From an uncultured Gammaproteobacteria bacterium (GTDB taxonomy: Bacteria; Patescibacteriota; Patescibacteriia; SG8-24), in assembly GCA_964407925.1 (NCBI GenBank), contig CAYOXM010000003.1, forward strand, positions 5,023 through 69,022: a DNA stretch of 64,000 nt, written 5' to 3'. Below the pieces are notes generated by a model that made no database searches, had not been told where the DNA came from, and worked only from the letters and a program-made list of their open reading frames with translations. The translations under genes and the position numbers were made by a program. This document shows positions 6,678 to 41,575 of this stretch, one piece after another (position 1 is the stretch's first letter; every line of letters begins with the position of its first letter).

Positions 6678-7916
6678 CTAGTCGAACTGCCCCCCGAAAA
6701 AATCGAACAGTTTGCCCGGACCGGCGGGATTGCGGCCTTGGTCGACTTCCGCACCGTCCTTGACGCCGTCGGCGTCGGAATCGGGATTATTCGGATCGGA
6801 GCCGTAGAACTTTTCCAGCGCGTTCGTGAGCCCGTCCTCGTCGGTGTCTTCCTGGCCGGGATCGAAGATGTCGACGCCGAGTCCGCCCTCGTCGGCAGGC
6901 TTCTTGCCGACGCGCGCCGAACCGTCCTTCGCGAGCGGCAGGTGTTCCTTGAAGCTCGGCAAAAGCGATTCGACGACGGGCGTGACGTCGGTGAGGTCCT
7001 TCTCGGGCGTCTCGATGGAGAGCAGTTCGTTGAAGCGGGAGAAATTCAGCGTGAGCGACAGCGTTCCCTGCCGCACGCCGTCGTCGTAACGGAACCGGAA
7101 GCGCGCGCGGTAGAGAAGATAGTCGCCGCCGCCGATCCACATCTCGCCGTCCTCCGCGGCGACGTTGGCAAAAAAGGTGTCCGCGGCGGTACGTTCCTTG
7201 TTGGTGAGCTCCCGTCCCAGCCGCTTCGTCTCGGCGAGCACGAAGTAATCCTTGAAGAACAGGACTTCCGGCTCGACTTGGTAGTGATGGACGGCGACGC
7301 CGTTCAGTTTCTCGTTCTTGAGTTTTTCCTTCACGCGCACGAACGGCGTGGCGCGGAACTGTTCGCGCAGGTAATCGCGATCGGCCTTCTCGAGCGGCGG
7401 ATGGTCGCCGCCGACCGCCGGCAGATCGACGTCGGCGAACAGCTTGCGGAAACTGAGGCGCAACCATTTGCCGGAGAGCTCGTCGAGGTGCAGCGCGCCG
7501 ACGCGGCTCGGCAACGCGCTGAAATTGAAGTAGTGGGCGTCGCCGGCCTTGACGTACTCCCCGGCGACCTTGGTCGGTTCGCCCTCGCCGACGTCGAGCG
7601 CGAACTTCTGCCACGCGCCCGTCGACGCCTCGTCGGTCCGATTGACCCACCCGCTTCCCGCGAGCCTCAGCTCCTCGCGCGACTTGCGGACGTTGCCGTT
7701 CGCGTCCTTCGAGGCGACCCAGCCCGACCAGCGGGCGTCGGTTTCGAGATAGAACGTCTTGGCGTTGACCATCCGCCACTGCATGAACCGGACGATTTCG
7801 GTCGACTGCGGGATGAGCAGGAACAGCAGGCTCGACGTCGCGATGCCGAGCGTCGAGATGAAGATGACGATCCACGTCGAGACGTGCGCGTACCAGGGTT
7901 TCTGCGACATAGGCAT
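6678..7916 (-). CDS. membrane-anchored hypothetical protein with C-terminal Asp-rich TSP3-like Ca-binding repeats
   Basis: N-terminal TM helix. C-terminus reads DTDEDGLTNALEKFYGSDPNNPDSDADGVKDGAEVDQGRNPAG. Confidence 0.55.
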   Translation of the reverse strand: MPMSQKPWYAHVSTWIVIFISTLGIATSSLLFLLIPQSTEIVRFMQWRMVNAKTFYLETDARWSGWVASKDANGNVRKSREELRLAGSGWVNRTDEASTGAWQKFALDVGEGEPTKVAGEYVKAGDAHYFNFSALPSRVGALHLDELSGKWLRLSFRKLFADVDLPAVGGDHPPLEKADRDYLREQFRATPFVRVKEKLKNEKLNGVAVHHYQVEPEVLFFKDYFVLAETKRLGRELTNKERTAADTFFANVAAEDGEMWIGGGDYLLYRARFRFRYDDGVRQGTLSLTLNFSRFNELLSIETPEKDLTDVTPVVESLLPSFKEHLPLAKDGSARVGKKPADEGGLGVDIFDPGQEDTDEDGLTNALEKFYGSDPNNPDSDADGVKDGAEVDQGRNPAGPGKLFDFFGGQFD

Positions 7917-7917
7917 C

Positions 7918-8856
7918 CTACTTCTTCGATTTCTTGAGCCGCGCCGCGACGTCGGTGAACGGCTTCGCGTCCGCGGGCGCGTCGACCTCGGCCCGCTCGG
8001 TCACGGGCAAAAACTCGATCATCACCGACAAGTGACCGCCCTCCTCGCCGCCCGTCGCGGCGCTTTCGATGACGAACTTCTTGAATTCCCCCGAACGCTT
8101 GTCGATCCAGACGTCGACGCTTTCGGCGTTCCGCGCGAGGCCGGCGGAAATTTCGGCCTCCTCGTCGGGCGTAAGCGGACGTCCGAGCGCCAACTCGCGC
8201 ACGTCCTTGAGCATCCGCGCCGCGCCGTCGCGGTCGAGGAGCAGGGTGAACCGGCGCAACGGAACGCCGCCGACCACTTCGTTGGGAAGCTTGCCCCCGT
8301 ACGAGAACGCCTCGCCGCCGACGACGGCGGACCTGACGCGCGCCCACGCGACCTTGGCCTTCTCGTCGCCGAGGCCCGGACCCGCGTCGACGCCCGAAAG
8401 GGTGGCGCGGAGGTCATCGAGCCGGAGCGCGTACCACTGGCCGTTCAGATCGGCGAGCGAAAGCGCATCGCCCTCGCCCTTCGGCAGGCCGGCAAATCTG
8501 AGGAACGCATCGCCGTCCGGCCGCGCCTTGAGCTCGATCGAGATGTCGTCGTTCGAGGCGTCGCCGGTACCGAGCAGGCTGAAGGCGGCCTCGCCGTTCG
8601 GCAGGCCGTCCTCCGGGACGTTCGCGTGCACCGCGCCGCCGATGAGTACCGGCACGCGTTCGCCGCCGGAAAGCGCGGCCGGCGCGAGCGTTTCCGCGGT
8701 GACCTTCACATACACCGCATCGGCCTCGCCCAGCTTCCTGAACGCGCCGGCGAGCAGCGTCTCCGGCGACGGCTCGCGTACGACGTAGACGATGGCGACC
8801 GTCGCCGCGACGAGCGCGACGAAAGCGACGATGAGCGGCGTTCTGCGCATAGGCAA
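7918..8856 (-). CDS. membrane-anchored hypothetical protein
   Basis: N-terminal TM helix. It abuts the downstream gene, consistent with one operon. Confidence 0.5.
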   Translation of the reverse strand: MPMRRTPLIVAFVALVAATVAIVYVVREPSPETLLAGAFRKLGEADAVYVKVTAETLAPAALSGGERVPVLIGGAVHANVPEDGLPNGEAAFSLLGTGDASNDDISIELKARPDGDAFLRFAGLPKGEGDALSLADLNGQWYALRLDDLRATLSGVDAGPGLGDEKAKVAWARVRSAVVGGEAFSYGGKLPNEVVGGVPLRRFTLLLDRDGAARMLKDVRELALGRPLTPDEEAEISAGLARNAESVDVWIDKRSGEFKKFVIESAATGGEEGGHLSVMIEFLPVTERAEVDAPADAKPFTDVAARLKKSKK

Positions 8857-26204: not shown

Positions 26205-26277
26205 GGCAAATGGCGTTAAGAATTCATTGGCGAAAGTATACTCCCGATAGGACAAGTTGGCAAAGTGCCGAACATTA

Positions 26278-26299
26278 TTTTTGCTTATATAAGCAAAAA
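26278..26299. promoter_or_regulatory. 22-bp perfect palindrome TTTTTGCTTATATAAGCAAAAA in an AT-rich htrA upstream region
   Basis: Read directly from the sequence. It lies about 75-95 nt upstream of the htrA ATG, and a TTATCCACA box sits at 26332. Confidence 0.4.
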
Positions 26300-26372
26300 T
26301 AATGTCGTTCTTATCACTACATAACGTAGTTTTATCCACAACGAAAAACCCACCGGACACGGTGGGTCGAAT

Positions 26373-27109: not shown

Positions 27110-27145
27110 CTTTATCCACAATGGGGACAGTCCCCGTTGTGGATA
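27110..27145. promoter_or_regulatory. near-perfect palindrome TTATCCACAATGGGGAC-A-GTCCCCGTTGTGGATAT (two inverted DnaA-box-like 9-mers)
   Basis: Read directly from the sequence. It lies about 55 nt upstream of the ATG at 27051. Confidence 0.45.
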
Positions 27146-27712
27146 TCAGTAGTCCAAACCGAACCGCGCCGGAACGCCGTGGTAAAAGTAATGTTTCACG
27201 AGCGACACGTCGCTCACGAGGTCGGCAAGTTCGCGGAAGGACTCGGGCGCGTCGCGTCCGGTCAGCACGAGTTCGGTCTCCGCGGGTTTCGATCGGATGA
27301 CGGCAAGCACGTCTTCCTCGGCCAGCATCCCGAGCGTCACCGTCGTGTTGATTTCGTCGAGGATGACGAGGCCGTGCTCCCCATTCGCGAAAATGCCGCG
27401 GACGATTCCGAGGCCGCGCTCGGCTTCGGCCTTATCCTCCGGCGTCACGCCGAAACGGAACCGGCCGGTCACGGGGTCGATGCGGTCGAGGCCCGTGGCA
27501 TGAAGCGCGATTTCGGGAAACCGCTCGGCGATAATCTTACGCTCGGCATAATGGTCGCCGCCCTTGTCGAAGTGGACGATGGCGACCTTCATCCCTTGCG
27601 AGACGGCGCGCAGCGCCATCCCGAGGCCCGCGGTCGTCTTGCCCTTCCCATTGCCAGTGTAGACCTGAATGAGACCCGTGGATTTCGGCGTCGCTGATGA
27701 CCTGCGTTCCAT
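27146..27712 (-). CDS. cobO: cob(I)yrinic acid a,c-diamide adenosyltransferase (CobA/CobO/BtuR family)
   Basis: IQVYTGNGKGKTTAGLGMALRAVSQGMKVAIVHFDKGG. The start was trimmed to MERR. It lies directly downstream of nrdJ. Confidence 0.8.
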   Translation of the reverse strand: MERRSSATPKSTGLIQVYTGNGKGKTTAGLGMALRAVSQGMKVAIVHFDKGGDHYAERKIIAERFPEIALHATGLDRIDPVTGRFRFGVTPEDKAEAERGLGIVRGIFANGEHGLVILDEINTTVTLGMLAEEDVLAVIRSKPAETELVLTGRDAPESFRELADLVSDVSLVKHYFYHGVPARFGLDY

Positions 27713-28046: not shown

Positions 28047-31253
<3,207 letters not shown>

Positions 31254-31430
31254 GGGTGAAAAATTTTTCGAAAAATTGCTGGTGTAGAGTAGCGCGGGTT
31301 CTCACCATGAGCAACCCTCCTTATCCACAACTAATTGTGTCTGTTAGTCCGAGTATACCACAAGATGTTGTGTTGCTTGTGGATAACCCTCCGTACAAAA
31401 AACGACACAAATTTACGCCTTCATCGAGCG
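31254..31430 (-). promoter_or_regulatory. nrdJ upstream region: DnaA-box-like 9-mers, extended -10, and an AT palindrome in the 5'UTR
   Basis: TTATCCACA at 31321 and TTGTGGATAA at 31377 are inverted. A degenerate TATACCACA sits at 31354. On the nrdJ sense strand this gives TG-G-TATACT (extended -10). AATTTTTCGAAAAATT lies at 31263-31278. Confidence 0.45.
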
Positions 31431-33166: not shown

Positions 33167-33197
33167 AAAACCCCCGCTTCGTGCGGGGGCGTTTTAT
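33167..33197. terminator. A5-ACCCCCGC-TTCGT-GCGGGGGC followed by T4, bidirectional
   Basis: Read directly from the sequence. Confidence 0.55.
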
Positions 33198-34501
33198 GTT
33201 CCGCCCAGACGGGCGAGGACGCGCTCGAACGACGCGAGGTCCGGATCGATGACCACGGGCGCGTTCGCGCGAGAGGGCGGGATGCCGGGGAGCGCGCCCG
33301 AGTGATAGCCGACGGTCGCGTCGGGATCCTTGAGCATGTGCCCGGTGAGCACGGCGAGGACGGAATCCCCGCGGCGCACGAGGCCGACGTCGGCGAGCTT
33401 CTTGAGTCCCGCGGCCGCGGCGCACGAGGCCGGTTCCGCGCCGACGCCGTCGGCATCAAGGACGGCTTTCGCGTCCATGATTTCGCGGTCGTCGACCTGC
33501 ACCACGACGCCGTCGGTCTCGCGGATGGTGCGGACCGCCTTGTCGAAGTTGACCGGCGCGCCGATCTTGATCGCCGTCGCGATCGTCTCGGCGCGGACGA
33601 CCCGCTTCTTCCAGCCGTCGTGCATGTGCTGCGCGAGCCATAGCGGGTTCGCTCCGGCCGCCTGCACCATGGCGATGCGTGGAACGCGGGAGATGAGCCC
33701 GAGCTCGCGCGCTTCCTTCACCGCCTTCCCGAACGCCGCCGCGTTGCCGAGATTTCCGGCAGGAACGACGATCCAGTCGGGCGCGACCCATTTCATCTGC
33801 TCGAACGCCTCGAGCATCACGGTCTTCTGGCCTTCGAGCCGGACGGGATTCACGGAATTCATCACCGTGAGCCCGAACCGTTCCCGCGCCGAAAGCAGGA
33901 GCTTCAGCGCGTCGTCGAAGTCGCCGCGGACCTTCACCGTCGTGGCACCGTAGGCGAGCGATTGCGCGACCTTGCCGAGCGCCGTCCCCTTCTCGGAGAT
34001 GAGGATGACGGACGGGATGCCCGCGAGCGCCGCATAGGACGCGACGGACGCAGAGGTGTTGCCGGTCGAGGCGCACGCGACGATTTTCGCCCCGCACCGC
34101 TTCGCCCACGTCATCGCGACGGTCATGCCGCGGTCCTTGAAGGAGCCGGTCGGGTTCTCCCCCTCGTGCTTGAAGCGCGCGCCAGGGAGGCCGAGCCAGC
34201 GGTTGGTCCTCGCGAACTCATAGAACCGGGTGTTACCTTCCGCGCGCATGACGAGTTCGTCATCGGCGAGGCCGGGCATTACGAGGTCGCGGAAGCGCCA
34301 GACGCCGCTCTGGTCCGCCGGCGACTCGAGATGCCACCGACGGATGGCGAACATGGCGCGGAGCGAGTCTCCGCGGTAGCGCAGGGCGGACCAGTCATGA
34401 ACGACGTCGAGCAGGCCGCCGCAGTCGCAGGCGTAACGGTCGCCGTCGAGCGGATACGTGTCCGTGCAAAGAACGCACGCGAGGCGTGACGTCAGCTCCA
34501 T
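33194..34501 (-). CDS. thrC: threonine synthase
   Basis: FKDRGMTVAMTWA (PLP lysine) and an N-terminal Zn-ribbon-like CVLC...CDCGG. Confidence 0.9.
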   Translation of the reverse strand: MELTSRLACVLCTDTYPLDGDRYACDCGGLLDVVHDWSALRYRGDSLRAMFAIRRWHLESPADQSGVWRFRDLVMPGLADDELVMRAEGNTRFYEFARTNRWLGLPGARFKHEGENPTGSFKDRGMTVAMTWAKRCGAKIVACASTGNTSASVASYAALAGIPSVILISEKGTALGKVAQSLAYGATTVKVRGDFDDALKLLLSARERFGLTVMNSVNPVRLEGQKTVMLEAFEQMKWVAPDWIVVPAGNLGNAAAFGKAVKEARELGLISRVPRIAMVQAAGANPLWLAQHMHDGWKKRVVRAETIATAIKIGAPVNFDKAVRTIRETDGVVVQVDDREIMDAKAVLDADGVGAEPASCAAAAGLKKLADVGLVRRGDSVLAVLTGHMLKDPDATVGYHSGALPGIPPSRANAPVVIDPDLASFERVLARLGGT

Positions 34502-34503
34502 CG

Positions 34504-35472
34504 CTAACTCCTTTCAATCGTCCGAGCGCCACCGGCGCCGACTCGGCTCACGATGACATCGGAGGGGATGCCGGTTTTCCGCCAAGCGGCCCGCATCATC
34601 CTCGCGACGACCTTCGCACGGGCCGGCCCATCAGTCAAAGCGAAAAGCGCGGGACCGGCGCCGGAGACCGAGGCACAAGCGGCGCCGGCGGCGAGCGCGG
34701 CGCGGATGACCTCTGCGCCGCCGCGGATAAGACGAAGACGGACCGGCGCGGCAACGGCATCGGCCATGACCGCACGGCCGAATAAGGCCAAGTCCTTCCT
34801 ATATATGGCTGCGACGGCGGTGGCCGTGTTCGCGGCGGTCGCAGCCATGACGGCGAGCGGCACGGCTCTCGGGAGAGCCGCTCGCGAAGCCTTGGTTTCA
34901 AGCGTCAGCGCGGGGCTCACGACGACGACCTGCCACGTTTTCGGCGGCACGAGACGGACGACCTCGGGCGGATCCCCCGGACGGATGACGCAAAACCCGC
35001 CGAACAGCGCGGGCGCGACGTTGTCTGCATGCGCGACGCCGCAGGCGATACGCTCGCCCTCGCGAGCGAGGTCAAGAAGTCCGTCATCGTCGAACCGTCC
35101 GCCGAGGAGCGCGTTCGCGGCGACCGCGGCGGCGGCCGCTGAAGCGGATGAGGAGCCGAGCCCGCTCCCGAGGGGCAACCCCTTTGTCAAACGGACATCA
35201 GCGCCGAACCGCACGCCGGCGCGACGGAACGCGAGCGCGACGACCGCCGACGCGACGTTCTTGCGCGCGTCACGGGAAAGCTTTCCGCCGTCGCCCTCGA
35301 CGCCGACGAGCCGCACGCCCGGACGAGTCGAACGGGCCGCGGCCACGACGTCGCCACGGCCCTCCAGCGCGAACCCGAAAACGTCGAACCCCGGACCGAC
35401 GTTGGCGACGGTCGCCGGGGCGAACGCTGATACGTGATCAAGACGTCCTTTCATTCCCTTATGTATACCCAT
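34504..35472 (-). CDS. thrB: homoserine kinase
   Basis: GHMP kinase motifs NVGPGFDVFG and LPLGSGLGSSSASAAAA. Confidence 0.8.
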   Translation of the reverse strand: MGIHKGMKGRLDHVSAFAPATVANVGPGFDVFGFALEGRGDVVAAARSTRPGVRLVGVEGDGGKLSRDARKNVASAVVALAFRRAGVRFGADVRLTKGLPLGSGLGSSSASAAAAAVAANALLGGRFDDDGLLDLAREGERIACGVAHADNVAPALFGGFCVIRPGDPPEVVRLVPPKTWQVVVVSPALTLETKASRAALPRAVPLAVMAATAANTATAVAAIYRKDLALFGRAVMADAVAAPVRLRLIRGGAEVIRAALAAGAACASVSGAGPALFALTDGPARAKVVARMMRAAWRKTGIPSDVIVSRVGAGGARTIERS

Positions 35473-35909: not shown

Positions 35910-36659
35910 ATGGACAGCCGAACGGCACTGGGAATCGACATGATCCGCACGATCGTCGGGTGGCGGCTCAAGGAAAGCCTGCTTTTCATCCCCTCGGACG
36001 ATTACGAGGACGAGCGGGAGGAGATCGACGAGGCGTGCACGGCGGCGCGCAAGGCCTTCGTCAGCCGACTGACCGACATCGCCGTCGCCGACGCCGCGGG
36101 AACGCGGTCGGCCGCCCTCCTCGTCACGCCGGACGAGGCGGAACGGCTCTTCGGCCCGCTCGCCGGACGCATCGCGGAAGCGATGAACGCGGGCAAGGAG
36201 GGCGAGGACGCCGCCCGGCGCCTGCGCATCGAACGCGCCGGACTCGTCGGTTTCGTGCGCGCCTGCGCTCCGGCCGCGGCGCGGTACTGCACGGAACCGA
36301 CGGCGGCGCTGCGCCGCGACGCCGAGGCGCTCGCCGGCTTCGTCGCGGAAAACGACCTGCTCCTCGAAGACCTCGACGAGAACGCCTGGCGCGCGTTCCT
36401 GCGCCGTACCACGACGCCGGAGGCGTTCCGGAACCGGATCACGAGCTACGTGAACCGCGTCACCGACGAGGAACCGCTGCTCGCGCAGTTCGTCCACGCG
36501 TTCCGGCGCGAGTTCCCCGATCCGGCCGAGTACCGTTCGGTCGAGGAGGAGCTTCGGCTGAACGACGCCGCGCAGATGGCCGCCGATCTCGAGGAGATCC
36601 GCGAAGACGTCGGCAACATCGTCAACGACGTCATCGGGGAGGTTTGGCCGCCGGGCTGA
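35910..36659 (+). CDS. hypothetical protein (opposite strand, embedded in the thr gene cluster)
   Basis: AAAGGAG lies 7 nt upstream of the ATG at 35910. Confidence 0.45.
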   Translation: MDSRTALGIDMIRTIVGWRLKESLLFIPSDDYEDEREEIDEACTAARKAFVSRLTDIAVADAAGTRSAALLVTPDEAERLFGPLAGRIAEAMNAGKEGEDAARRLRIERAGLVGFVRACAPAAARYCTEPTAALRRDAEALAGFVAENDLLLEDLDENAWRAFLRRTTTPEAFRNRITSYVNRVTDEEPLLAQFVHAFRREFPDPAEYRSVEEELRLNDAAQMAADLEEIREDVGNIVNDVIGEVWPPG

Positions 36660-36689
36660 CCGTCGCCGACGGCGATTCCGAGGACCGCT

Positions 36690-37034
36690 TCATGCGGTCC
36701 TTTTTTCTTCGTCCGTCACCTCACTGCCGGGCCGCCTACCGACGTACGCGAACGCGACCGTGCCGCTCGCGAGGACGAACGCCCGTCGCTCGTACGCCGA
36801 CGTCTCATACTCGTCCGCGCGCCGCAACTCGTCATCGGACACGTCGACGACGTCGCCCTTCACGGCCGCGTCTTCCTCGATGACGAGGTCGGGATAATTC
36901 CTGCCCTCGACCGTGATTTGCGTCAGGCCGTATCCGTCGAGATGGTCGGAACGGCTCTCGAGCCTGCGTCCGAACACTTCCTCCTGGACGGCCGGTTCGC
37001 GGAGCGTGCCGTAGATGAAAAGCGCGTGCGTCAT
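36690..37034 (-). CDS. gamma-glutamyl cyclotransferase-like (AIG2/GGCT family) protein, paralog of 35451..35753
   Basis: MTHALFIYGTLREPAVQEEVFGRR... aligns with the first copy. Confidence 0.55.
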   Translation of the reverse strand: MTHALFIYGTLREPAVQEEVFGRRLESRSDHLDGYGLTQITVEGRNYPDLVIEEDAAVKGDVVDVSDDELRRADEYETSAYERRAFVLASGTVAFAYVGRRPGSEVTDEEKRTA

Positions 37035-37041
37035 AATATTT

Positions 37042-38097
37042 TCAGAGCAGTCCCCGTGCCGCGAGCAACTCCGCGTCGGCAACGGCGGCACCGGCCGCGC
37101 CACGGACGGTATTATGCGACAGGACGACGAATTTCCACTGGAGTATCGGGCACTTGCGAAGCCGACCGACGCTCACCGCCATTCCCCTGCCCGCGTCGCG
37201 GTCGCGCCGCGGCTGCGGACGGTTTTCCTCCTCGCGCACGACGACGAACGGCGTCGGAAGGCTCGGCAATCCGAGCGCCGCGACGGACGGGACGTACGAG
37301 CGCCACGCCGCGAGGACGTCCTCGGCCGACGCCCGCGCGCCGAGTTCCACGGACACGCACTCGAGATGACCGTCGCGGACGTGCACGCGGTTGCAGTGCG
37401 CCGAGACGGCGATGTCCGCGTCCGCGAACCGTTCGCCGTCGTACCGCCCAAGGAGCTTTAGCGTCTCCGCCTGCATCTTTTCCTCCTCCCCCTTGATGAA
37501 CGGCACGACGTTGTCGAGGATGTCGAGCGACGGCACGCCCGGATAGCCCGCGCCGGAAATCGCCTGCATCGTAGTGACGAGGACTTTCGTCACGCCGAAC
37601 GCGTCTTGGAGCGGCTTGAGCGCGCAAACGAGACCGACGGTCGAACAGTTCGGGTTCGTGACGATGAATCCCCTGCGCCAGCCGCGATTCGCCTTCTGCC
37701 GCGCGACGGCGCCAAGATGGTCGGCGTTCACTTCGGGGATGACAAGCGGCACGTCTGGCTCCATCCGGTGATTCTTCGCGTTCGAGATGACGGGATACCC
37801 GGCTTCGGCGAAGGACGCTTCGATTTCCCCCGCGACCGCGTTATCGAGGCCCGAGAGCACGAAATCGCAATCGAGGCCGGGCGTGCACTCGCGTACCACC
37901 ATGCCTTTCGCCCAGTCGGGCATCGGCTGGTCGAGCTGCCAGGCCGCGGCCTCGGCGTACGGCTTGCCGGCGGACTGCTCGGATGCGGCGAGCGCGGTCA
38001 CCGAGAACCAAGGATGATTGTCGAGCAGCGCGAGCATCCTTTGTCCGACCGTGCCGGTCGCGCCGAGGATTCCCACGCGCCAATGTTTTTTTTCCAT
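37042..38097 (-). CDS. asd: aspartate-semialdehyde dehydrogenase
   Basis: VGILGATGTVGQ, plus an active-site Cys region. Confidence 0.9.
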   Translation of the reverse strand: MEKKHWRVGILGATGTVGQRMLALLDNHPWFSVTALAASEQSAGKPYAEAAAWQLDQPMPDWAKGMVVRECTPGLDCDFVLSGLDNAVAGEIEASFAEAGYPVISNAKNHRMEPDVPLVIPEVNADHLGAVARQKANRGWRRGFIVTNPNCSTVGLVCALKPLQDAFGVTKVLVTTMQAISGAGYPGVPSLDILDNVVPFIKGEEEKMQAETLKLLGRYDGERFADADIAVSAHCNRVHVRDGHLECVSVELGARASAEDVLAAWRSYVPSVAALGLPSLPTPFVVVREEENRPQPRRDRDAGRGMAVSVGRLRKCPILQWKFVVLSHNTVRGAAGAAVADAELLAARGLL

Positions 38098-38108: not shown

Positions 38109-39194
38109 TCAGAATCCGCCGACGCGCAGCAGGTCCGAGAAGACGCCCGCAGCCGACACTTCCGCGCCCGCGCCCGGCCCCTTGATGACGAGCGGCAGCG
38201 CGTTGTACCGGCGACTGCGGATGACGAACATGTTTTCCGGCCCTTCGAGCGCGCCGAATCCGGAACCGCTCGGGACTTCCTCGATGCCGACACGGACGGC
38301 ATCCGGCGTGAGCGTGGCAAGGTAGCGCAGGGCATGCCCGCGCCTCGCCGCGGACTTCACGCGCTCGTCGAATTCGCGGCCGTGCTCGGAGAGGCCGTCG
38401 AGGAAGGCGTCCGCGCCGCCTTCGCGAAGCGCTTCGGGAACCAGGCTTTCTGCCGTAACGCTCTCAAGATCGATGCGGTGACCCAGCAAGCGCGCAAGGA
38501 TGAGCGCCTTGCGGCACACGTCCGCGCCGGACAGGTCCTCGCGCGGGTCAGGTTCGGTGTACCCGCGCGTCTTCGCGTCACGAACGGCGAGCGCGAACGG
38601 GACGCCCTTGCCGCACTCCGCGAAAAGGTGGCCGAGCGTCCCCGACATCGCCGCGCGGACCTCGATGACGGCGTCGCCGGAAAGGAGCATGTCACGGAGC
38701 GTGCTGACGACGGGGAGCCCCGCCCCGACGGTTGATTCGTAGCGGTAGGCGGGACCGTTCGGGTCGGCCTGCGCGGCCACGATGGCGTCGTACTGGATGA
38801 GCGGCGCGGTGAGCGGCTTCTTGTTCGCGCTGATCACGTGCCAGCCGCGGCGGAGCCAGGTCGCGTGCGCCTCGTGGTTCCTTTCGGCGGTCATGTCGAC
38901 GACGACCTGCCCCTCGGCATCCATGCCGGCGACGCTCGCGGTCACGTCGTCCCAACTGCCTGATCCGGCGCCGGCAGGACGGAGTTCGAACCGCGCTCGC
39001 CCCTCGGCGATGCCGTTCAGGTCGAACACGGGAATCCCCTGCGGGATGTAAATCGCGGTCGTCCTGCCGACGATGCCCGTGACGCGGATATCGACGCCGC
39101 GGCGCAGGAACGCCTCATGCGTTTCCGCGATCTGCCGGATGAACGCGCGACCGACGTTGCCTTTGCCGATGATGACGACGGGTATCACGCGCAT
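38109..39194 (-). CDS. hom: homoserine dehydrogenase
   Basis: VVIIGKGNVGRAF NAD-binding motif plus a catalytic domain. No ACT domain. Confidence 0.85.
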   Translation of the reverse strand: MRVIPVVIIGKGNVGRAFIRQIAETHEAFLRRGVDIRVTGIVGRTTAIYIPQGIPVFDLNGIAEGRARFELRPAGAGSGSWDDVTASVAGMDAEGQVVVDMTAERNHEAHATWLRRGWHVISANKKPLTAPLIQYDAIVAAQADPNGPAYRYESTVGAGLPVVSTLRDMLLSGDAVIEVRAAMSGTLGHLFAECGKGVPFALAVRDAKTRGYTEPDPREDLSGADVCRKALILARLLGHRIDLESVTAESLVPEALREGGADAFLDGLSEHGREFDERVKSAARRGHALRYLATLTPDAVRVGIEEVPSGSGFGALEGPENMFVIRSRRYNALPLVIKGPGAGAEVSAAGVFSDLLRVGGF

Positions 39195-40591
39195 ACGGGA
39201 AGGGATAATGCATGAAGGGCGAAGGCCTCGTGCGCGGCGCGCACGGCGGCGTCGGCTTGCGATTCGCGGACGACGAAGGAGATGTTGCGCTCAGACGACC
39301 CTTGGGCGATGGCCAGCACGTTCACGCCCGCGGCCGCGACTGCGGTGAACAGGCGTCCCGCGACGCCCGGCGAACCGCGCATCCCCTCGCCGACGATGGC
39401 GACCGCGGCGACGCGCCCCTCGACCGCGATGCGGTCGACGAGCCGCGCCTCGAGGTGCTCGCGCAAGTCGCGATCGAGCGCGGCGGCGAACGCGGCCGCG
39501 GAATCGCGCCCGACGAGGAGGCAGATGTTCTGCTCGGACGACGACTGACTGAACATCACGATGTTCACGCGCTCCCGACCGGCGACCCGGAAGACGTGCG
39601 CCGCGAAGCCGGCGATGCCGACCATCCCGCGCCCCTCGACCGTCACCATGGCGAGGCCTTTCGCCGCGGTGACGACCTTCACGCCATGCGGCGCGGTGGA
39701 CGTGCGGCTCCCGATCGCGGTGCCGGGGGCGTCGGGCCGGAAGGTGTTGCGCATCCTGATGGGAATGCCGGCCTCGACCGCGGGAATCATCGTCTTCGGG
39801 TGGAGCACCTTCGCGCCGAAGTAGGACATCTCGGCGGCTTCGTCGTAACTGATGTCAGAAATGAGCGCGGCGTTCGGGATTATGGCGGGGTCGGCGGTCA
39901 TCACGCCGTCGACCTCCTTCCATATCCAGATTTCCTTCGCGGCGAGGCCGGCCGCGACGATGGCGACGCTGTAGTCCGAACCGCCGCGACCCAGCGTCGT
40001 CGTGACGCCCTTGGGCGTGGCACCGATGAATCCGGTGACGACGGGAACGACGGCTTTCTCCACGAGCGGCGCGAGGACGTCGCGAACCTTGCCGTACGTC
40101 CGCTTGAAATCCACGTTCGCCGCGCCGAACCGGTCATCGGTCTCGATCAGGCCGCGACTGTCGACGGCGACAGCGGCGATGCCACGCGCCACGAGCGCCG
40201 CCGTGACGACGGGCGCGCTCATCCGCTCGCCGAAGGAGACGACGGCGTCCGACGCGCGGTCGTCGAGCGTTCCGGCTTCGGCGACGGCACGGAGCGTCGA
40301 CGCGAGTTCGCCCGCGAGCGTGCGGACCGCGTCGAGCGCAGAAACGTTTTCGCCGAATGCCGCGAGCGCCGACTCGTGCCGCGCAAGGATTGATGCGGCG
40401 CCCGCCTCCGCGCCAGCAGCGTCGCCCTTCGCGGCGAGCGCGGCGAGTCCGAGCAACTCGTCCGTCACGCCGCGTAGAGCGGACACGACGAGGACGGGGC
40501 GGACGTCACGGTACCGTGCGACGATGTCCGCGACCTGCGTGATGGCGTCGGCCGTGCCGACGGAGCTGCCGCCGAATTTCATGACGATCAT
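39185..40591 (-). CDS. lysC: aspartate kinase
   Basis: MKFGGSSV motif, followed by ACT domains. Confidence 0.9.
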   Translation of the reverse strand: MIVMKFGGSSVGTADAITQVADIVARYRDVRPVLVVSALRGVTDELLGLAALAAKGDAAGAEAGAASILARHESALAAFGENVSALDAVRTLAGELASTLRAVAEAGTLDDRASDAVVSFGERMSAPVVTAALVARGIAAVAVDSRGLIETDDRFGAANVDFKRTYGKVRDVLAPLVEKAVVPVVTGFIGATPKGVTTTLGRGGSDYSVAIVAAGLAAKEIWIWKEVDGVMTADPAIIPNAALISDISYDEAAEMSYFGAKVLHPKTMIPAVEAGIPIRMRNTFRPDAPGTAIGSRTSTAPHGVKVVTAAKGLAMVTVEGRGMVGIAGFAAHVFRVAGRERVNIVMFSQSSSEQNICLLVGRDSAAAFAAALDRDLREHLEARLVDRIAVEGRVAAVAIVGEGMRGSPGVAGRLFTAVAAAGVNVLAIAQGSSERNISFVVRESQADAAVRAAHEAFALHALSLPVCA

Positions 40592-40673
40592 ATGTCGAGA
40601 GTGTGAAAGGTTGGGAGGTCATGAGGCCGAGAGACGCTCTCAACCTTTAAACCTTTTGACCTCTCAACCTTTT

Positions 40674-40699
40674 AAAAAGCCCGCCTTCGCGTGGCGGGT
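40674..40699 (-). terminator. attenuator terminator CCCGCC-ACGCGAA-GGCGGGC followed by T5 (minus-strand sense) between the leader peptide and lysC
   Basis: Read directly from the sequence. Confidence 0.55.
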
Positions 40700-40734
40700 G
40701 TCTGTCTCGCGTGCGTGTTCTCGCAGCAGCGACC

Positions 40735-40800
40735 TACCCCGCCGAACAAGTCGTCGTGGTCGTGGTCGTCGTCGTCGTCGTGACAAACGCGGTGGCCATA
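40735..40800 (-). CDS. threonine-operon leader peptide MATAFVTTTTTTTTTTTCSAG (11 consecutive Thr codons)
   Basis: Minus-strand reading ATG GCC ACC GCG TTT GTC (ACG/ACC/ACT)x11 TGT TCG GCG GGG TAG. It is followed by a terminator hairpin upstream of lysC-hom-asd-thrB-thrC. Confidence 0.5.
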
Positions 40801-40848
40801 ATGATGGGAGATAGCGTAACACGCTTCCCCGTCGCGTCAAACGACAGA

Positions 40849-40885
40849 CTTATCCACACCGGGGACAGTCCCCCGGTGTGGATAA
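40849..40885. promoter_or_regulatory. near-perfect palindrome TTATCCACACCGGGGAC-A-GTCCCCCGGTGTGGATAA (second copy of the 27110 motif)
   Basis: Read directly from the sequence. It lies about 50 nt upstream of the thr leader ATG. Confidence 0.45.
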
Positions 40886-40915
40886 AAAATGACCCGCCGG
40901 ACAGGCGGGTCGTCG

Positions 40916-41575
40916 TCATTTCTTCGCCGCGTAGTCGGGGCGGACCATGACGTGGAAGCAGAGCGCTCCCCACTTCTCCTCGGTCGCCTGAATGAGGCCG
41001 CGCCGTTCCAAGTCGGCGAGCTTCCTGCGGAGCCACGCCTGGACCGCCGGTGGCATGTCCTTCGTCGAGATGTCGACGGTGGATCCGGTGAGGTGCGACG
41101 ACCGCTTCTGCGGCGTCACGCCGCTCGCCGCGACCGCGGTGCGCCTGCGGAGCTTCTTCTGATACTCCTCGGTACGCGAGAGCGAGGTGACGCGGAGTTT
41201 CGCCCCCGCCGGCATCGCCACGTCGGCCGCGAGGTCGTGGAGAAACTCCTTCACCCATGGACGGGCGTGCGCGTAGAGCGCCGCGTTGTCCGGATCGAGC
41301 TCGCCGAGCTGCGAGTCGACCGTGACGGGACCGTCGTCCTTGATCGGGACGAGACGCCCGTCCTTCATGTGGTCGCGAATCTCGTCGAGATTCCTGAAGC
41401 GCGCGAGGCCGAACTCGTCGGCGACGCGATTTTCCTCCGCGAGCGCTGACGGCGATCCCGCGAGGACCGAGGCGTCGCTTGCCGGAGCGGGCGGCCGTTT
41501 CTTCTTGGGGCGCGCGTCGGCATCGGGGGCGGCGAGGAGGACGATGACAAAGAACGCGTGTGCGGGAACGCGCAT
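40916..41575 (-). CDS. secreted peptidase M15 (VanY/LAS-like D-Ala-D-Ala carboxypeptidase fold) candidate
   Basis: Signal peptide. SSHLTGSTVD matches the HxxxxxxD Zn-site motif, and EEKWGALCFHV resembles the E.WH motif. Confidence 0.4.
   Translation of the reverse strand: MRVPAHAFFVIVLLAAPDADARPKKKRPPAPASDASVLAGSPSALAEENRVADEFGLARFRNLDEIRDHMKDGRLVPIKDDGPVTVDSQLGELDPDNAALYAHARPWVKEFLHDLAADVAMPAGAKLRVTSLSRTEEYQKKLRRRTAVAASGVTPQKRSSHLTGSTVDISTKDMPPAVQAWLRRKLADLERRGLIQATEEKWGALCFHVMVRPDYAAKK

Follow-up and report, generated by a model that had tools for sequence, protein, structure and literature searches.

A predicted leader-peptide attenuator sensing threonyl-tRNA upstream of the lysC-hom-asd genes in an uncultivated bacterial lineage

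A micro-open reading frame (micro-ORF) with eleven consecutive threonine (Thr) codons lies in front of the Thr-synthesis genes in a 64,000-nucleotide (nt) stretch of contig CAYOXM010000003.1 from an uncultured bacterium (assembly GCA_964407925.1). This whole stretch is referred to as the window, and positions are given in its numbering. Very probably the element attenuates transcription by a ribosome-mediated (leader-peptide) mechanism: it would respond to charged tRNA-Thr and thereby set how much transcription reads through into lysC, hom and asd, and into thrB and thrC too where these are contiguous. An earlier note on this DNA had read it as a classical Thr attenuator, and sequence comparison and folding models support that reading, with a Thr-codon-rich leader ORF, an intrinsic terminator and a mutually exclusive antiterminator found together and conserved in ten relatives.

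The predicted leader peptide is encoded on the minus strand (40799..40734) by 21 codons followed by UAG, and its translation, MATAFVTTTTTTTTTTTCSAG and stop (MATAFV-T11-CSAG-stop), is the one given in the earlier note. The codons are ATG GCC ACC GCG TTT GTC, (ACG)5 ACC ACG ACC ACG ACG ACT, TGT TCG GCG GGG TAG, and the Thr run comprises eight ACG, two ACC and one ACT. This run is a real feature and not a product of chance, because it is the longest homopolymeric amino-acid run in all six frames of the window, where other runs reach at most 8 residues and are mostly off-frame arginine, and because the longest run in 50 shuffles was 8. The micro-ORF forms the in-frame 3′ end of a mechanically called ORF of 174 amino acids (40734..41258). 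That longer ORF was rejected as a real gene because part of its DNA belongs, in another frame, to the Pfam-supported DUF5715 gene (40916..41575) and because it also crosses both the DUF5715 terminator (40911..40891) and the thr promoter. The terminator lies 35 nt and the lysC ATG (40591) 142 nt downstream of the leader stop, which matches the distances of about 35 and 140 nt reported earlier.

The terminator stem has six base pairs (bp), all G-C (40698..40680), and is followed by UUUUU at 40678..40674. Its 5′ arm, CCCGCC, can instead pair with GGCGGGG at the 3′ end of the leader (40743..40737) to form an antiterminator, the 5′ arm of which lies no further from the leader stop codon than the length of one ribosome footprint. 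The earlier note had GGCGGGG overlapping the stop codon; it is indeed at the end of the leader, but it abuts the UAG, of which only the U joins the helix. The pairing itself, likened to that of E. coli thrL, was recovered, and the E. coli leader analysed alike has the same geometry. The folds fit the classical four-region scheme, in which region 1 would be the distal Thr codons, region 2 GGCGGGG-UAG-GUC, region 3 CCCGCC and region 4 GGCGGG.

The folding comparison proposed in the earlier note found mutually exclusive terminator and antiterminator hairpins in the window and in the ten relatives. In all 11 leaders, the segment from GGCGGGG to the terminator 5′ arm folds alone as a 45-55-nt hairpin of -22 to -37 kcal/mol. 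The terminators are weaker (-9 to -24 kcal/mol), each with a G+C-rich stem and a U-tract. The base helix of the antiterminator has the general form (G/C)GCGGGG(U) paired with (R)CCCCGC(C/G), and its 6 bp were recovered by RNAalifold in 11/11 leaders. When applied to the antiterminator segment, this program found the invariant base helix only, the inner helices being too divergent to align; these differ in sequence between lineages and keep their pairing. In one relative (L171; L numbers denote the individual loci) the base helix carries a compensatory change from G-C to C-G, with a matching change in the terminator 3′ arm. A MAFFT alignment of whole leaders placed the short terminator arms out of register, and column-wise pair counting on it was not used.

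Ribosome occupancy was modelled by forcing the 28 nt around the A-site to be unpaired before folding, a treatment that is thermodynamic only and without kinetics. With the ribosome at the leader stop, the probability of the terminator (P_term) was at least 0.98 in 11/11 leaders. Early and middle stalls in the Thr run brought P_term near 0 in most of them (for example, 0.00 in L081 and L167, 0.01 in L169 and 0.06 in L171), and the mean over eight such stall positions in the window was 0.08. At the last Thr codon, a stalled ribosome covers region 2, and P_term therefore returned to 0.92-1.0 in 10/11 leaders (0.59 in L086). A stall at Thr codon 2 of the window gave 0.56, because the distal Thr codons are then free to pair with region 2, and a mid-run stall, which removes that competitor, gave 0.00. 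The positive control, the experimentally established E. coli thrL (NC_000913) folded by the same procedure, gave 1.00 with the ribosome at the stop codon and 0.01 for a stall in the middle of the run. Shuffling the spacer alone, with the Thr run and terminator kept, weakened the switch in 11/11 leaders, the observed value being reached by 0-18 of 100 shuffles. In L170 (2375-2484) the conserved UAG after GCGGGG is UCG and the ORF runs on for five more codons. With a far stronger terminator (-24 kcal/mol) and a weak switch in the model (P_term 0.79 under stall), this leader may be a degenerate or differently tuned attenuator.

A search for poly-Thr micro-ORFs before lysC in related genomes, also proposed in the earlier note, returned orthologous leaders in ten distinct relatives, all uncultivated bacteria with LysC proteins 54-81% identical to that of the window. 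In each the leader stands between DUF5715 or another upstream gene and lysC, and most of these loci share the order CCA-adding enzyme, small gene, DUF5715, lysC operon. Across the 11 leaders, Thr accounts for 88 of the 95 codons in the run (ACG 51, ACC 29, ACT 8), with synonymous codons used near the local Thr codon usage. The remaining run codons are single-base neighbours (serine TCG or TCC and alanine GCC), and none of the 11 runs contains an isoleucine codon. The N-terminal residues of the peptides vary freely, while GCGGGG is present at the RNA level in 11/11 leaders and GCGGGG-UAG in 9/11, a pattern that selection for codon identity and RNA pairing, and not for the peptide, would be expected to leave.

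One further relative, L168 (LysC 61% identical), has no leader at 2380-2600, where a promoter-like stretch directly precedes lysC. Its fetched locus has no thrB or thrC after asd, and the absence of the leader thus coincides with that of the Thr-specific genes. The leader RNA was not found in loci with LysC of 51% identity or less, and the scan for Thr runs took in the stretch before lysC in all loci fetched. LysC scans of a genome collection and of metagenomes listed mostly matches in that range plus one close locus; the close relatives came from exact-protein look-ups, and the exact look-up of the window's own LysC returned no contig. Public records assign four syntenic close loci (P0005, P0008, P0010 and P0020) to Parcubacteria, Binatia, Eisenbacteria and Uhrbacteria. 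Since closely related syntenic loci carry conflicting labels, at least some of the taxonomic labels of these metagenome-assembled genomes (MAGs) must be wrong.

An extended -10 element, TGnTAnnnT, stands 6-15 nt before the leader ATG in 11/11 leaders, and this conserved promoter, identified in silico, would place a transcription start just upstream of the leader, a start whose absence the earlier note would have counted against attenuation. A simple consensus promoter scan did not report the extended -10 of the window. Its distance from the ATG is 6-9 nt in 7/11 leaders, a spacing compatible with a 5′-terminal AUG, and 11-15 nt in the other 4, including the window with 13 nt; in L170 it is 8 nt if the upstream in-frame ATG is the start. 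No Shine-Dalgarno sequence was found in any of the 11 leaders or for lysC, hom and asd, and one is present for thrC, DUF5715 and an opposite-strand gene within the operon. From the promoter spacing, several members would probably have a leaderless mRNA for this peptide, and the window one with a 5′ untranslated region (UTR) of about 6-7 nt. The earlier note had also named a missing ribosome-binding context as a reason to doubt the leader. The Shine-Dalgarno sequence is indeed missing, but a leaderless or near-leaderless start would explain this, and lysC, hom and asd lack one as well. Comparable arrangements have been reported. Mapped start sites in Deinococcus deserti led to 14 proposed attenuators whose leader peptide opens a leaderless transcript (PMC4007540), and in mycobacteria leaderless small ORFs (sORFs) with poly-cysteine runs reportedly attenuate the expression of operons (bioRxiv 10.1101/834739).

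Attenuation would then proceed as follows. Transcription from the extended -10 would start a few nucleotides before the AUG, and the leader would be translated from a leaderless or near-leaderless 5′ end without a Shine-Dalgarno sequence. When Thr-tRNA is plentiful, the ribosome would pass the 11 Thr codons, reach the UAG and cover region 2, so that regions 3 and 4 pair as the terminator and transcription ends at the U-tract. Under a shortage of Thr-tRNA it would instead stall within the first eight or so Thr codons, leaving region 2 free and covering the distal Thr codons, which would otherwise be able to pair with region 2. The antiterminator formed by regions 2 and 3 would then block the terminator, and the biosynthetic genes would be transcribed.

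Several points weigh against this proposal. Formal covariation is thin, with one compensatory pair among 11 sequences, because the base helix is almost invariant and the inner helices cannot be aligned. The shuffle control is only moderately significant for each sequence, and the observed value for the window was reached by 12/100 shuffles. The naked RNA of the window folds into the antiterminator (P_term 0.01), so an untranslated leader would read through; naked E. coli thrL and seven relatives favour the terminator. A UTR of about 6-7 nt without a Shine-Dalgarno sequence, as the 13-nt spacing in the window implies, is less favourable for leaderless initiation than the 6-9-nt spacing elsewhere. 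Furthermore, control of thrB-thrC by the attenuator is uncertain in this genome because an opposite-strand gene (35910..36659) splits the operon; control of lysC-hom-asd by the leader is straightforward.

Alternatively, the leader might sense Thr-tRNA and act through translation of lysC or access of Rho to it, with the hairpin and U-tract being minor. The missing Shine-Dalgarno sequence of lysC, the extra hairpin of -33 kcal/mol between the terminator and the lysC ATG in the window and the mycobacterial poly-cysteine sORFs are all compatible with this. However, the extra hairpin is absent from the relatives, and 11/11 leaders keep a G+C-rich stem with a U-tract and a competing antiterminator that uses the 5′ arm of the stem, features that control by intrinsic termination requires and that have no obvious role otherwise; we regard this output as very unlikely. 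A switch set by a ligand, a tRNA or a protein (riboswitch, T-box or TRAP-like), with the poly-Thr frame incidental, appears less probable again. In many bacteria lysC is under lysine riboswitches, and the distant Caldilineaceae lysC loci carry riboswitches for S-adenosylmethionine (SAM). Here, however, no Rfam family of this kind matched the window leader (E<=10) or the relatives (gathering thresholds), the inner helix of the spacer differs in sequence between lineages, an argument against a ligand pocket, and conservation of the start codon, frame, Thr identity and stop position is explained by translation only.

A further alternative is a functional small Thr-rich peptide, or an independent small gene that does not regulate the operon. 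The micro-ORF does have its own promoter and terminator, and trans-acting leader peptides such as peTrpL in Sinorhizobium are known (PMC7298713). The peptide is nevertheless poorly conserved outside the Thr run, whereas GCGGGG-UAG is conserved as RNA, and in every case lysC is the next gene after the element and has the same orientation, the one relative without the leader also having no thrB and thrC after asd. A function in trans would not rule out attenuation, and on its own we consider it slightly more improbable than a ligand-set switch. Least probable of all is chance, either as an (ACG)n repeat beside an unrelated hairpin or as the C-terminus of a real 174-residue protein. Slippage can expand (ACG)n, and the longer ORF does exist mechanically. 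The comparative data already contradict this possibility, as the run is not a pure repeat and the Thr codons are kept with different synonymous patterns in the 10 relatives; the length of the run relative to all other frames and the out-of-frame overlap of the 174-residue ORF with DUF5715, together with its passage across a terminator and a promoter, argue against it as well.

The nearest known counterpart is E. coli thrL, which has the same logic and geometry. Both leaders have 21 codons, many of them Thr, and an intrinsic terminator followed by an aspartokinase gene, and both show the same switch in the same folding model. In both, the last sense codons and the stop form the 5′ arm of the antiterminator, GCG GGC UGA in E. 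coli, where it pairs with AGCCCGCACC, and GCG GGG UAG here, and both peptides end in -A-G-stop. In contrast to the mixed Thr and isoleucine codons of E. coli, the leader described here is pure Thr with occasional serine, and no isoleucine input is expected. The regulated gene also differs, a monofunctional lysC followed by separate hom and asd replacing the fused thrA (aspartokinase I-homoserine dehydrogenase I), and E. coli thrL has a 5′ UTR, whereas here the ATG is 6-15 nt from the -10 without a Shine-Dalgarno sequence. In its apparent start at or a few nucleotides from the transcription start, its lack of a Shine-Dalgarno sequence and its many codons for the amino acid that the downstream genes make or use, the leader resembles the Deinococcus and mycobacterial sORFs. 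It differs from these in lineage and amino acid, in that their starts were mapped and those here are predicted from spacing, and in that the 13-nt spacing in the window suggests a short UTR and not a 5′-terminal AUG.

RNA homology to E. coli thrL was not detectable. The Rfam model for Thr leaders (RF00506) matched neither the window (gathering threshold) nor 40550..40950 (E<=10) nor the ten relatives (gathering threshold), and scored 122.1 bits on E. coli thrL in the same run, for a gathering threshold of 55 bits. Lysine riboswitches, T-boxes and other known cis-regulatory RNAs in Rfam likewise gave no match in the whole window (gathering threshold), its leader region (E<=10) or the relatives (gathering threshold). 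Weak miRNA-like matches (E<=10) merely reflect the long hairpin at 40606..40672.

Short ORFs with Thr clusters were also seen by eye before lysC in other phyla, in Caldilineaceae (L019, L032), an Acidobacteriaceae MAG (L058) and Cyclobacteriaceae (L029, L035). A hairpin with a U-tract precedes the lysC-type aspartokinase gene in L019, L032 and L058, and in the first two the ORF contains a complement of the terminator 5′ arm (GCGATGAGAG), both again judged by eye. These leaders differ from ours in having unrelated sequences and Thr runs of 4-6 codons, which in Cyclobacteriaceae are mixed with isoleucine as in E. coli. A survey of Actinobacteria found no thr attenuator (PMC1262725). The Thr-leader solution probably recurs across phyla by convergence. 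In the two Caldilineaceae loci (L019 5454-5580, L032 5628-5744) a SAM riboswitch (RF00162, 62-70 bits) precedes, in tandem, a Thr-cluster leader ORF (with MTTTTTMGNRWAMRAQ and MTTGTTMTTQCWAMRAQ, respectively) and a terminator, all before lysC, and this tandem is a candidate for two-input (SAM and Thr) control of aspartokinase.

The element is a sequence-unrelated counterpart of a well-known type of regulator, that is, a textbook mechanism in an uncultivated lineage; as an annotation it is sound and no surprise, and it leaves the understanding of attenuation unchanged. It provides a confident regulatory annotation for the thr operon of a poorly known lineage and defines a sequence family missed by the Rfam Thr_leader model, for which the 11 leaders could seed a new covariance model. 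It also adds another likely attenuator leader peptide translated from a leaderless or near-leaderless mRNA. Together with the Thr leaders of Chloroflexota, Acidobacteriota and Bacteroidota, it suggests a repeated origin of Thr-codon attenuation of aspartokinase operons.

The features of the operon and its leader are collected in Table 1. The earlier note had placed the whole five-gene Thr pathway downstream on the same strand. All five genes do share the minus strand, but the series is interrupted between asd and thrB by two small genes with GGACT domains and by the opposite-strand gene of 249 codons. The latter is an ORFan that has only two homologs (78% and 37% identity) among 5.8 billion proteins; neither it nor the homologs have a Pfam domain, and it is inserted between the two GGACT genes in this genome only. 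L081 and L084 lack this gene and have an uninterrupted operon (lysC-hom-asd-GGACT(-GGACT)-thrB-thrC). A weak promoter-like site on the minus strand before the second GGACT gene (TTGACG-N17-CACGCT) could drive thrB-thrC separately. One or two GGACT genes are kept between asd and thrB in the clade (L081, at 7569-7874 and 8023-8328, L082, L084 and L167), and they have no obvious role in the canonical Thr pathway. The long hairpin that follows the attenuator terminator looks like a palindromic insertion peculiar to this genome. Different A/G-rich palindromes lie upstream of the promoters in L084 and L085.

Table 1. Features of the predicted thr attenuator and operon in the window, and leader peptides of the relatives.
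Feature	Position	Strand	Remarks
36-bp palindrome TTATCCACA-CCGGGG(G)AC(T)GTCCCCGG-TGTGGATAA with DnaA-box-like ends, possible operator	40850..40885		Promoter region, not attenuator RNA
-35 hexamer TTGACG of predicted thr promoter	40835..40840	-	TTGAC(C/G) in window, L081, L082, L084, L085, L172
Extended -10 TGTTACGCT (TGnTAnnnT)	40813..40821	-	16 nt after -35; predicted start near 40805/40806
Leader peptide ORF, 21 codons and UAG	40734..40799	-	Orthologous ORFs in 10 relatives
Run of 11 Thr codons (predicted sensing codons)	40749..40781	-	Distal codons double as region 1, able to pair with region 2 (folds)
Antiterminator hairpin; base helix GGCGGGGU (40743..40736, region 2) with ACACCCGCC (region 3), enclosing an inner stem-loop	40693..40743	-	-28.2 kcal/mol folded alone
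Intrinsic terminator, CCCGCC (region 3)/ACGCGAA/GGCGGG (region 4), then C and UUUUU	40674..40698	-	-11.7 to -12.3 kcal/mol
Long hairpin of AAAGGTTGAGAG repeats and complement, between terminator and lysC	40606..40672	-	-33.1 kcal/mol; ends 14 nt before lysC ATG
lysC, monofunctional aspartate kinase (AA_kinase and 2 ACT), first regulated gene	39185..40591	-	Pfam; N-terminus MIVMKFGG matches homolog consensus
hom, homoserine dehydrogenase	38109..39194	-	Pfam; overlaps lysC end
asd, aspartate-semialdehyde dehydrogenase	37042..38097	-	
GGACT-domain gene 1 (AIG2/gamma-glutamyl-cyclotransferase-like)	36690..37034	-	Starts 7 nt after asd stop
Opposite-strand ORFan, 249 codons	35910..36659	+	AAGGAG Shine-Dalgarno, promoter-like site, own terminator 36680..36702
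GGACT-domain gene 2, 101 amino acids	35451..35756	-	
thrB, homoserine kinase (GHMP kinase)	34504..35472	-	
thrC, threonine synthase (pyridoxal phosphate enzyme)	33194..34501	-	
Operon terminator after thrC	33190..33170	-	
L081 leader peptide			MHIASTTTTTTTTTTCSAG, stop
L082 leader peptide			MAFVSVSTTTTTTTTRKAG, stop
L084 leader peptide			MVLATVTTTTTSTTRKAG, stop
L085 leader peptide			MVLATLTTTTTSTTPKAG, stop
L086 leader peptide			MNRVSLTTTTTTTTTTTTRSAG, stop
L167 leader peptide			MRSIFSTSTTSTTTPLAG, stop
L169 leader peptide			MRNHLTVTTTTTTTTPKAG, stop
L170 leader			UAG stop lost, five extra codons
L171 leader peptide			MHSLTATVTTTTSTTTTLSAG, stop
L172 leader peptide			MKFALATTATTTTTSP, stop

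The palindrome upstream of the thr promoter contains TTATCCACA, a perfect DnaA-box 9-mer, of which the window has 6 copies against 0.05 expected. These are at 40850-40885, 27112-27146, 26332-26340, 31321-31329 and 31378-31386, and the near-identical palindrome TTATCCACA-N2-GGGGACAGTCCCC-N2-TGTGGATAA is shared by the thr promoter region and 27112-27146. In the window the promoter-proximal 9-mer of the palindrome is 9 nt upstream of the -35. Exact copies are present in five relatives (L081 3804, L082 3809, L086 1273, L167 2313 and L171 2294), in each case as the sole exact copy in a locus of 6-9 kb and 6-9 nt (further in L086) upstream of the -35 of the thr leader. A copy with one mismatch is found at the same place in L084 and L085, and the others have 1-2 mismatches; L168, which has no leader, has no copy. 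The site is a possible operator, either for DnaA or for a different protein. Should one that recognises the box bind there, biosynthesis of Thr and the aspartate family would be tied to replication status, and to our knowledge no link of replication status to thr operons has been described. Two-layer control of the thr operon, with a leaderless poly-Thr attenuator and a DnaA-box protein at the conserved site in most members, is suggested by these positions but we consider it unlikely. The cluster of TTATCCACA sites was also considered as a replication origin and rejected, because there is no inflection in GC skew; no dnaA or dnaN context was seen.

Two of these TTATCCACA boxes (31321-31329 and 31378-31386), in inverted orientation, bracket the predicted promoter (TGgTATACT, 31310-31390) of a gene for a class II ribonucleotide reductase on the minus strand (31253..28047). 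Between them are two palindromes, CACAAnnnnTTGTG, which resemble NrdR boxes, and this layout suggests control of the DnaA type, the NrdR type or both. In addition, an AT-rich perfect palindrome, TTATTTTTGCTTATATAAGCAAAAATAA (26270-26305), adjoins a TTATCCACA box upstream of a gene for an HtrA-like protease, in a locally AT-rich intergenic stretch of this genome of 66% G+C.

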